A DNA stretch of 64,000 nt from Isurus oxyrinchus (lineage: Eukaryota). The notes beneath the pieces are model-generated. The model saw only the letters and a program-made list of their open reading frames with translations, was not told the DNA's origin and did no database searches. Positions 18,563-49,755 of the stretch are shown in pieces; position 1 is the first letter of the stretch; every line of letters starts with the position of its first letter. The stretch covers positions 148,800,001 to 148,864,000 of the forward strand of contig JANJGN010000006.1 of the NCBI GenBank assembly GCA_026770705.1. The letters run 5' to 3'. Made by a program: the position numbers and the translations under genes.

Positions 18563-18614
18563 GTCTCGGAGACGAGGATGAGCTCATTCAAGATGGTTTC
18601 CTGTCCAGGCTCAG
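18563..18614 (+). CDS. LIN28B: Candidate distal alternative LIN28B exon (VSETR-MSSFKMVSCPGS-G|), ATG at 18578
   Basis: Acceptor ttaatttccag| and donor TCAG|gttggt. ATG to donor is 37 nt (phase 1), matching exon 2. The peptide resembles the recalled human alternative LIN28B N-terminus (..KRMRSFNQVSSAPG|GASKG). Confidence 0.6.
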
Positions 18615-48419: not shown

Positions 48420-48600
48420 GATTATTGCGGTGACAGGTTAGAGGAGAGGCCGATTGGCTCTGTTCTGCCTCTCTAAAGACTGCGATGTGTAATTAGCGGC
48501 AAGAAAGCATGTAATTGACGAGTCACGTGTGTGCCAGGGCCAGGAAAAAGGAGGGGGTGGGGGCTAACGAGGGAAAGCACGTTAGACCATGCGAGCATTG
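48420..48600 (+). promoter_or_regulatory. LIN28B proximal promoter / 5'UTR start: inverted CCAAT box, TAATT motifs, E-box
   Basis: ATTGG at 48453-48457; gtaattag and gtaattga; GTCACGTG (CACGTG at 48524-48529). MYC-family activation of LIN28B is established. Confidence 0.65.
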
Positions 48601-48714
48601 GCGATTGCTAAATTTTTGATCCCTCAATCCTATGACGCTAGATTGATGCAGAAGATTACCCATTCCGAGGGAAAAGTTCTCATCGGGCGGTTTTGGACAC
48701 AGGGGCCTGTGTGA
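48589..48714 (+). CDS. Upstream ORF (41 aa) in the LIN28B 5'UTR: MRALAIAKFLIPQSYDARLMQKITHSEGKVLIGRFWTQGPV*
   Basis: gaccATGc at 48589 (A at -3) opens a frame to TGA at 48712-48714, 4 nt before the main ATG. A second in-frame ATG is at 48646. Too short for the supplied ORF track. Confidence 0.6.
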   Translation: MRALAIAKFLIPQSYDARLMQKITHSEGKVLIGRFWTQGPV

Positions 48715-48718
48715 CAAC

Positions 48719-48728
48719 ATGGCCGAAG
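48719..48728 (+). CDS. LIN28B: LIN28B coding exon 1 (M-A-E + first base of Gly; phase-1 donor GTTTAC)
   Basis: caacATGGCCGAAG|gt: strong Kozak context (A at -3, G at +4). MAEG is the vertebrate LIN28B N-terminus and splices in frame to the exon at 49574. The upstream 5'UTR resembles the human LIN28B 5'UTR as recalled. Confidence 0.9.
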
Positions 48729-49538
48729 GTTTACTTTTTTTTTCTCTCTTTTTTGTAACAAAAAATCCTTTTTGTTTGTTTGCATACTTTTTTAAGAGAT
48801 CGCAGAGGGAGCTTTTCCAAACCTATTGTTGTAGATCTCCCAAAAAATGTATGTACCCGCCTCCCCCCCCCCCCCCCCCATTTATTCACAACTTCAAAGG
48901 CTTTCTGAAGGGCTATTGTGTGGACTTGGTGTGCGATTCAGCACAGTTCCCCCCCCCCCCCCCCCCCCCCACCTCTCTCTCTCAGTTTGTGTGTGTGTGT
49001 GGAAGGCAACACTACACCTGCCCCTTAAGTTTGATTGGAGTACAGTTAACGCACGTTGGATGCTACCGTGGTTCTCTTCAGTATCATACGAACCTTATTT
49101 TAGTGGAACATTATTTTTTTTAAAAGCTCTCGCGATCGACGCTGTTGAATGTTGATTACGATTTGCAGAAAGAGTGGAGGAAGAAAAAGCCGGGCTTGTG
49201 TGATAGTGGTTTCTGCGGGAGATGGGCTCCGTTTTAAACCAGCCGCATTCCAGTTACGTACGGTTTTGCTAATCTCAATTTGCTGCTCCAAACATGGAGT
49301 AAAGGAGCAATCTGGGCAGCCTTGCACATGGATCCAGATCGACATTGCAAGGGCTTTTCCACATCGGCTTCAGCCAGTGTCCTTTAGCATTGCGAAGTGC
49401 TTTCTCCGCGCACCCCCCCCCCCCCCCATCTCCCCTCCCCCCACCCCAGAAGCTTATTTTTAAAATGTACTTTGTTAATGTTTTCTCCCTTTTTCTAACG
49501 TCAGATAAATTGAACATTTTTTTCCCCTCTCTCTTCCC

Positions 49539-49562: not shown

Positions 49563-49573
49563 CAACTGTCCAG

Positions 49574-49755
49574 GAGGGGCGGGTAAAGGTGCTGGAGACG
49601 AAAAAGGAAAACTGACAGAGAAAGAAGAATCTCAAATCCAGCAGGGAGCAGGCCACTGTAAATGGTTCAACGTTAGAATGGGATTCGGATTTATCTCCAT
49701 GACCTCTCGGGAAGGTACCCCCTTGGAAACGCCAGTGGATGTTTTCGTACATCAA
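49574..49755 (+). CDS. LIN28B: LIN28B coding exon 2, N-terminal half of cold-shock domain
   Basis: ccag|GA...CATCAA|gtaagt translates (G)GAGKGAGDEKGKLTEKEESQIQQGAGHCKWFNVRMGFGFISMTSREGTPLETPVDVFVHQ. GHCKWFNVRMGFGFISM and PVDVFVHQ are LIN28 CSD motifs; GHC, FIS and the MAEGG start indicate the B paralogue. Exon 3 (SKLFMEGFRSL...) was not found in the window, implying intron 2 is longer than 14 kb. Confidence 0.97.

Follow-up and report, generated by a model that had tools for sequence, protein, structure and literature searches.

The window analysed here, a stretch of 64,000 nucleotides from the shark Isurus oxyrinchus (assembly GCA_026770705.1, contig JANJGN010000006.1, positions 148,800,001 to 148,864,000), carries the start of LIN28B on its plus strand. 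A first exon of the MAEG type supplies ten coding nucleotides, the start codon included (48719 to 48728), with the splice donor at 48729. Exon 2, where the cold-shock domain starts, lies at 49574 to 49755 and is matched by the Pfam CSD family. The N-terminus read from these two exons is identical, over the 64 available residues, to the RefSeq LIN28B models of Cetorhinus and Carcharodon, as befits a lamniform-like shark, and the main ATG, with A at -3 and G at +4, stands in a strong context; this start codon is real.

Upstream of it lies an open reading frame (uORF) of 41 sense codons plus TGA (48589 to 48714, plus strand), out of frame with LIN28B, whose AUG (uAUG) is located 130 nt 5' of the main ATG. 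The stop codon (48712 to 48714) is followed by CAAC and then by the LIN28B ATG at 48719 to 48721. The original prediction had described this ORF, its translation and a TGA 4 nt before the main ATG, and all of this was confirmed. It had also called the start context good; the uORF start codon (48589 to 48591) reads TAGACC-ATG-C, with A at -3 and C at +4, and the context is adequate rather than optimal. A second AUG in the same frame, in weak context, is present at 48646 to 48648 (plus strand), and the lemur, loris, hamster and Goodea protein models, as well as the mouse guide RNA discussed below, have a Met at the corresponding position. A 4-codon ORF in the main frame, opened by a weak AUG, lies inside the uORF at 48632 to 48646.

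When the 170-nt leader was shuffled 20000 times by mononucleotide, 11.3% of the shuffles contained an AUG ORF, out of frame, that was 41 codons or longer, and 5.1% contained one of 20 codons or more whose end lay no further than 10 nt from the main ATG. Since an ORF of such size is no rarity by chance, the case for this element rests on conservation: it is conservation, and not the geometry by itself, that goes beyond chance.

Transcripts and alternative first exons

The uORF was found in a transcript-like context in a relative of this shark (organism C), where one 362-nt contig of run X20 spans 48564 to 48726 and continues at 49572 to 49755, reproducing the exon 1-exon 2 splice. The uORF therefore lies in a spliced mRNA-type contig, 5' of the main ORF, in a run whose type is only guessed to be RNA and which represents one sample; its contigs give no start site, strand or level. 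Together with 15 more unaligned bases, this contig begins about 40 nt 5' of the uAUG. In run X19, from the same sample, the two exons are on separate contigs. Among the 24 runs listed, those that contain the stretch are in no case recorded as RNA, and run X23 of organism B does not cover the exon, which counts neither for nor against the transcript. The RNA-type contigs of organism C and a DNA contig of another organism (organism B) cover the uORF with no indel listed within it, and because of this the uORF is not an assembly error.

The shark LIN28B gene has three alternative first coding exons, and the uORF is found only on the middle one (48719 to 48728). The distal exon, of the MSSFK type (18578 to 18614, plus strand), matches the shark RefSeq isoforms P0004-P0006, and transcripts starting there would skip the uORF exon. 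The third, of the MGSVLNQ type (49222 to 49252, plus strand), is intronic, lies 3' of the uORF exon and matches the shark RefSeq isoforms P0152 and P0164. Corresponding isoform types occur across vertebrates: by a rough pattern count, the 468 LIN28 proteins retrieved include 155 of the MAE type, 105 of the distal type and 44 of the MGSV type. An ATG at 49149 opens a putative in-frame extension of the MGSV exon by 24-25 codons (49149 to 49221), and the catshark model P0171 begins with an MLIT peptide similar to this extension. Far from the leader, at 1146 to 1763, there is an open stretch of 206 residues, which resembles a fragment of a LINE (CR1-like) reverse transcriptase. Directly 5' of the leader, promoter-like motifs of putative function occupy 48453 to 48529 (plus strand), presumably a reverse CCAAT box at 48453 to 48457 and an E-box, CACGTG, at 48524 to 48529. 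Just 5' of the E-box, the segment from 48485 to 48514 holds an ORF of three codons and a start-stop (ATG TAA), their transcription depending on the start site.

A distal start is also used in human: in LIN28B-TST (Guo et al. 2018), as presented in passages of a later article, it lies about 20 kb upstream, adds N-terminal residues and is driven by a distal promoter in tumours (PMC10296230). In the window, too, a first coding exon lies at a distance, 30 kb upstream. The same passages credit the higher output of LIN28B-TST to protein stability (PMC10296230), whereas escape of the distal transcript from the uORF is suggested here.

In six of the 468 proteins, namely those of a lemur, a slow loris, the Chinese hamster and three teleosts, the N-terminus is a uORF-type peptide that leads into exon 2. 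Like all mammalian and teleost peptides used below, these are predicted gene models and not orthologous DNA. In Lemur catta (XP_045398190.1, P0057), Nycticebus coucang (XP_053446574.1, P0130) and Cricetulus griseus (XP_003509716.1, P0405), the first 36 uORF residues continue in frame into exon 2 through one common junction, which suggests either that the leader has an alternative donor or that the gene finder makes this choice repeatedly. In the shark, none of the four GT sites inside the ORF is in the phase needed for such in-frame splicing onto exon 2. The teleost lin28b models of Goodea (P0113), Centropristis (P0272) and Centroberyx (P0276) also open with a uORF-type peptide (MRAKL...), the uAUG being present; their joins to exon 2 differ from one another, and these fusions may be artefacts of prediction.

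The shark uORF and its mammalian counterpart

A translated, repressive and functional Lin28b uORF is already in print, and the core element is not new. Hao et al. 2025, in the passages that bear on it, describe a mouse Lin28b uORF with an AUG start in partial Kozak context, encoding an 85-aa protein, PLUM, whose ORF runs over Lin28b exons 1-2 in another frame; PLUM was detected by antibody and mass spectrometry, and conservation is claimed there among mammals only (PMC12657964). According to passages of the article and its peer-review file, this uORF suppresses Lin28b, and the suppression is lost on mutation of the uAUG and strengthened by an added Kozak sequence (PMC12657964). Frameshift PLUM knockouts are described there as leaving the Lin28b level unchanged, with phenotypes that are rescued by PLUM expression in trans, and PLUM as binding L1td1 and controlling L1td1 condensates (PMC12657964). 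In passages of Popa et al. 2016, the lin28b uORF is translated, with footprints in mouse ES cells, and "highly conserved in vertebrates"; sharks, the frame and the peptide are absent from these text passages (PMC4712605). Among the titles listed in literature searches, none dealt with a shark or fish LIN28B uORF, and Figure S11 of Popa et al. and the supplement of PMC7530721 might bear on novelty.

The start of the shark uORF was compared with a human LIN28B primer that appears in two papers and, one base longer, in a third. The primer is identical at 19 of 20 positions to 48577 to 48596 (plus strand), the ATG included, while the next best plus-strand site in the window reaches 14/20. Shark and human have the uAUG and the A at -3 in common, bearing out what the original prediction had said of the start in the human 5'UTR. 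Downstream of the start, the shark has four extra codons relative to the mammalian models P0057, P0130 and P0405 (48595 to 48609, plus strand; placement ambiguous by one codon). Codons 8-24 (48610 to 48660, plus strand) form the half that is in frame with mammals, with 12 of 17 residues identical to the lemur model, and the alignment score of the shark and lemur N-termini was reached by none of 5000 shuffles. Inside this half, the guide RNA used for the mouse PLUM knockout matches 48642 to 48661 (plus strand) at 16/20, reading LMLKITP where the shark uORF frame reads LMQKITH. Because the window has another 16/20 site for this guide (minus strand, 21448), the match is supporting evidence only, to be taken alongside the rest. 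The RLMQKIT core, said earlier to be kept, turned out to vary: it is RRMLKIT in the hamster, LMLKIT in the mouse guide and GLMVTTA in a teleost model.

The second half of the ORF departs from this pattern. The product of the human primer pair is 117 bp long, and this places the end of the reverse primer at codon 35, where it reads TSLELR, as do residues 30-35 of the lemur model. The same span measures 128 nt in the shark and 117 in human, and the net 11 nt are made up of the shark's four additional codons near the start and a deficit of one base near codon 24. As the reverse primer matches its inferred shark position at only 10/20, and a different position at 12/20, its placement is weak alone and depends on the peptide match. 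The 1-nt difference in frame that sets the shark apart from bony vertebrates maps to approximately 48655 to 48663 (plus strand), with the best fit at codon 24. Beyond codon 24, the shark's own frame agrees with the lemur model at none of 16 residues, against 6/16 in the shifted frame (0.001 by shuffling, n=5000), and the frame equivalent to that of mammals reaches a stop 16 codons into the shark LIN28B coding sequence. The lemur and Goodea models share one frame across the shift site, with a score reached by 1 of 5000 shuffles, and the similarity of shark to Goodea is at chance (3390 of 5000). Once the 14 bases that separate the matching shark position from the main ATG are added, the implied distance between the mammalian uAUG and main ATG is 119 nt, or 40 codons. 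The +1 frame then has 45 codons up to a TGA at Met46-Ile47 of mouse Lin28b, and 40 plus 45 makes 85, the length of PLUM; this derived figure assumes that the mouse and human leaders are of the same length and that the 14 bases up to the main ATG are free of indels.

These comparisons modify two parts of the original prediction. Its frame-preserving 12-nt indel stands as the four-codon difference near the start, but an extra 1-nt shift near codon 24 brings the net to 11 nt. Of its conserved peptide, the uAUG and a first half in frame were retained, but not the second half (0/16), nor the position of the stop, since the mouse ORF overlaps the coding sequence.

By these alignments, the shark uORF is the counterpart of the mouse Lin28b uORF (PLUM). 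The two lie in the same gene and the same leader exon, start with a partial-Kozak AUG out of frame with the main ORF, and share the start site, the N-terminal frame and the first half of the peptide, the knockout guide mapping inside the shark ORF. They differ in extent: PLUM has 85 aa and overlaps Lin28b exons 1-2, whereas the shark ORF has only 41 codons and a stop, ending at 48714, that leaves 4 nt to the main ATG, so that both the overlap with exons 1-2 and the length of about 85 aa are absent from it; from about codon 25 it also runs in another frame than PLUM. The cut made with the knockout guide presumably falls within a few bases of the shark/bony-vertebrate frame difference (48655 to 48663), taking the cut position that we assume for Cas9.

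Peptide and nucleotide constraint

Organism C differs from the window at 4 of 166 bases of the leader exon and at 23 of 244 bases in a piece of the intron (Fisher p=0.004), and because of this we regard the leader exon as constrained. The four changes within the organism C uORF are all non-synonymous (Q13E, G28E, F35V and T37I), which has a probability of 0.35 under neutrality, the count being small; three of the four lie 3' of the frame-shift site. The single uORF change in organism B is G28E, the same as in organism C. We set aside a comparison of synonymous changes between the uORF (0/4) and exon 2 (4/4; Fisher p=0.029), the tally of the exon-2 contig being 4 of 8 differences.

Shark and mouse have four differences in the guide stretch, three of them synonymous when read in the uORF frame (simulated probability, 0.023). 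The 12/17 identity with lemur would be reached, with no selection on the peptide, with probabilities of 0.56 and 0.27 at 15-20% nucleotide divergence and of 0.029 at 30% or more, and as such fits nucleotide conservation. The synonymous bias in the guide stretch and the 12/17 identity give a hint of peptide-level constraint on the first half, while for the second half the sequence comparison is negative.

In a different reading, the first ~20-24 residues would be an active peptide conserved across jawed vertebrates, either a nascent-chain regulator or the trans-acting core of PLUM, and the tail would be dispensable. The 12/17 identity in a single frame, the frame-keeping difference of four codons upstream of it, the synonymous differences in the guide region and the lemur-Goodea similarity would all fit such a peptide, as would the peptide-dependent phenotypes of mouse PLUM rescued in trans in the passages cited (PMC12657964). 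However, a nucleotide divergence of 15-20%, at which this identity is expected, is about that of the guide (16/20) and primer (19/20) matches; the shark-Goodea similarity is at chance; the hamster alters the core; and organism C carries Q13E and no synonymous changes. Moreover, if Cas9 cuts where we assume, the guide cuts at about mammalian codon 20, and the knockouts lose function although most of the first half is likely retained in them; this puts PLUM activity in the portion that is absent from the shark. Repression dependent on the peptide is also opposed by the unchanged Lin28b of the mouse frameshift knockouts, as these are described in the article (PMC12657964), and the PLUM partner L1TD1 is eutherian according to the passages on its origin (PMC4161310). 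We consider an active peptide of this kind unlikely.

Conserved-peptide uORFs (CPuORFs) are defined by a place in spliced mRNA 5' of the main ORF, low dN/dS, a conserved C-terminus and stop, and peptide-dependent repression. The shark uORF resembles CPuORFs (animal survey, PMC7530721) in that it opens with AUG, belongs to a regulatory gene and encodes a peptide with similarity between distant taxa. It differs from them in that neither the C-terminal half nor the place of the stop is conserved (0/16 after codon 24, and the mouse ORF overlaps the coding sequence); on codon-level selection, the synonymous counts are mixed (0/4 in organism C, 3/4 in the mouse guide stretch).

Searches with the 41-aa peptide gave no homologue. 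A word-index protein search found none among proteins of near lengths and, among longer ones, two candidates, none at E<=10; no Pfam family was matched. A full HMMER search returned three matches (E 8e-6 to 5e-4) in proteins of 1190-1577 aa, which looked unrelated and were rejected. These blank results are no sign of novelty, because uORFs are seldom called as genes and the true relatives surfaced through the LIN28B models. A metagenome scan for vertebrate contigs found no match to a gapped pattern, and a 15-nt pattern gave 118 loci, with alignments of at most 27 bases, none of which was a LIN28B leader.

Another explanation gives translation little part: the exon could be kept for nucleotide-level reasons, such as core promoter or downstream elements, protein-binding sites or the need to splice a coding exon of 10 nt; the shark ORF would then be a by-product with little translational effect. 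Conservation of the leader exon about four times that of the intron, with no synonymous bias, fits this explanation, and the similarity to mammals extends beyond the frame shift; ORFs of such size appear in 11.3% of shuffles, and the E-box and CCAAT motifs lie directly upstream. Against it, shark and human share both the AUG and the A at -3, the leader RNA fold shows nothing unusual (z=-0.67), and no Rfam family matched the leader at threshold, the one match (E 0.95) being far below it. In mouse, the passages cited report AUG-dependent repression in reporters (PMC12657964) and footprints on the uORF (PMC4712605), which also oppose it. We judge this explanation to be improbable, and more so than an active peptide.

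A proposed start-codon-dependent brake on LIN28B

We propose that the shark uORF, as the PLUM counterpart, is likely to act as a brake on LIN28B that depends on the start codon, the 85-aa PLUM likely being a later mammalian elaboration; on balance, we think this reading probable. Translation and start-codon-dependent repression are taken from mouse. Demonstrated here are the ORF itself, its place in a relative's spliced contig, the common start context and first-half frame, and the frame difference near codon 24.

Part of the scanning ribosomes would start at 48589, on an AUG of adequate context, and would likely be lost to LIN28B. Passages of two articles indicate that reinitiation declines with uORF length and works best about 78 nt after the stop (PMC5389480, PMC6614817), and with 41 codons translated and a gap of 4 nt, reinitiation would be expected only seldom. 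LIN28B would mainly be made by ribosomes leaking past the uAUG. An ORF ending just before the main ATG, as in the shark, or overlapping it, as in mouse, would repress to a similar extent, and since either stop arrangement would do so, the start could be kept while frame, length and stop drift. As only one of the three alternative first exons carries the brake, the choice of promoter would turn it on or off. The original prediction had argued from the short spacing to a repressive uORF; the repression is reported in mouse, in the passages cited (PMC12657964), but the 4-nt spacing is not conserved, the mouse ORF overlapping the coding sequence.

The same spacing could be read the other way, as stop-start coupling, with ribosomes that finish the uORF reinitiating at once on LIN28B, so that the uORF would feed rather than brake it. 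Termination-reinitiation of the viral type involves an overlapping or abutting stop and start with an upstream UGGGA motif. The gap of only 4 nt is compatible with coupling, but in the shark the stop and start do not overlap and UGGGA is absent from 48589 to 48718; mouse is without such an arrangement, its uORF overlapping the coding sequence. Coupling of this kind is very improbable. A trans mechanism like that of PLUM is also unlikely in sharks, because L1TD1, its required partner, arose in the eutherian ancestor, as stated in passages on its origin (PMC4161310); binding of L1td1 and a role in condensates are unlikely to apply to the shark ORF.

Beyond the brake itself, we put forward a wider scenario as possible, though we would not call it likely. 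The LIN28B uAUG may be a jawed-vertebrate-wide brake that served as raw material for a new protein: a 1-nt difference would split the short shark ORF from the PLUM frame of bony vertebrates, PLUM would have acquired its trans function only after the eutherian L1TD1, and the same frame would be spliced as a LIN28B N-terminus in some lineages (strepsirrhines, hamster, some teleosts).

The value added to the published work on the Lin28b uORF is evolutionary and modest, and carries the caution that a 'conserved uORF' is not equal to a 'conserved peptide'. The Lin28b uAUG is dated to at least the split of sharks and bony vertebrates, and its two proposed jobs are separated, that of an old start codon and that of an 85-aa microprotein unshared with this shark. 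This offers a natural test of whether microproteins of the PLUM kind start out as cis brakes. If the scenario is true, sharks would be natural carriers of a frameshift like that of the PLUM knockout, almost at the mouse guide cut site.
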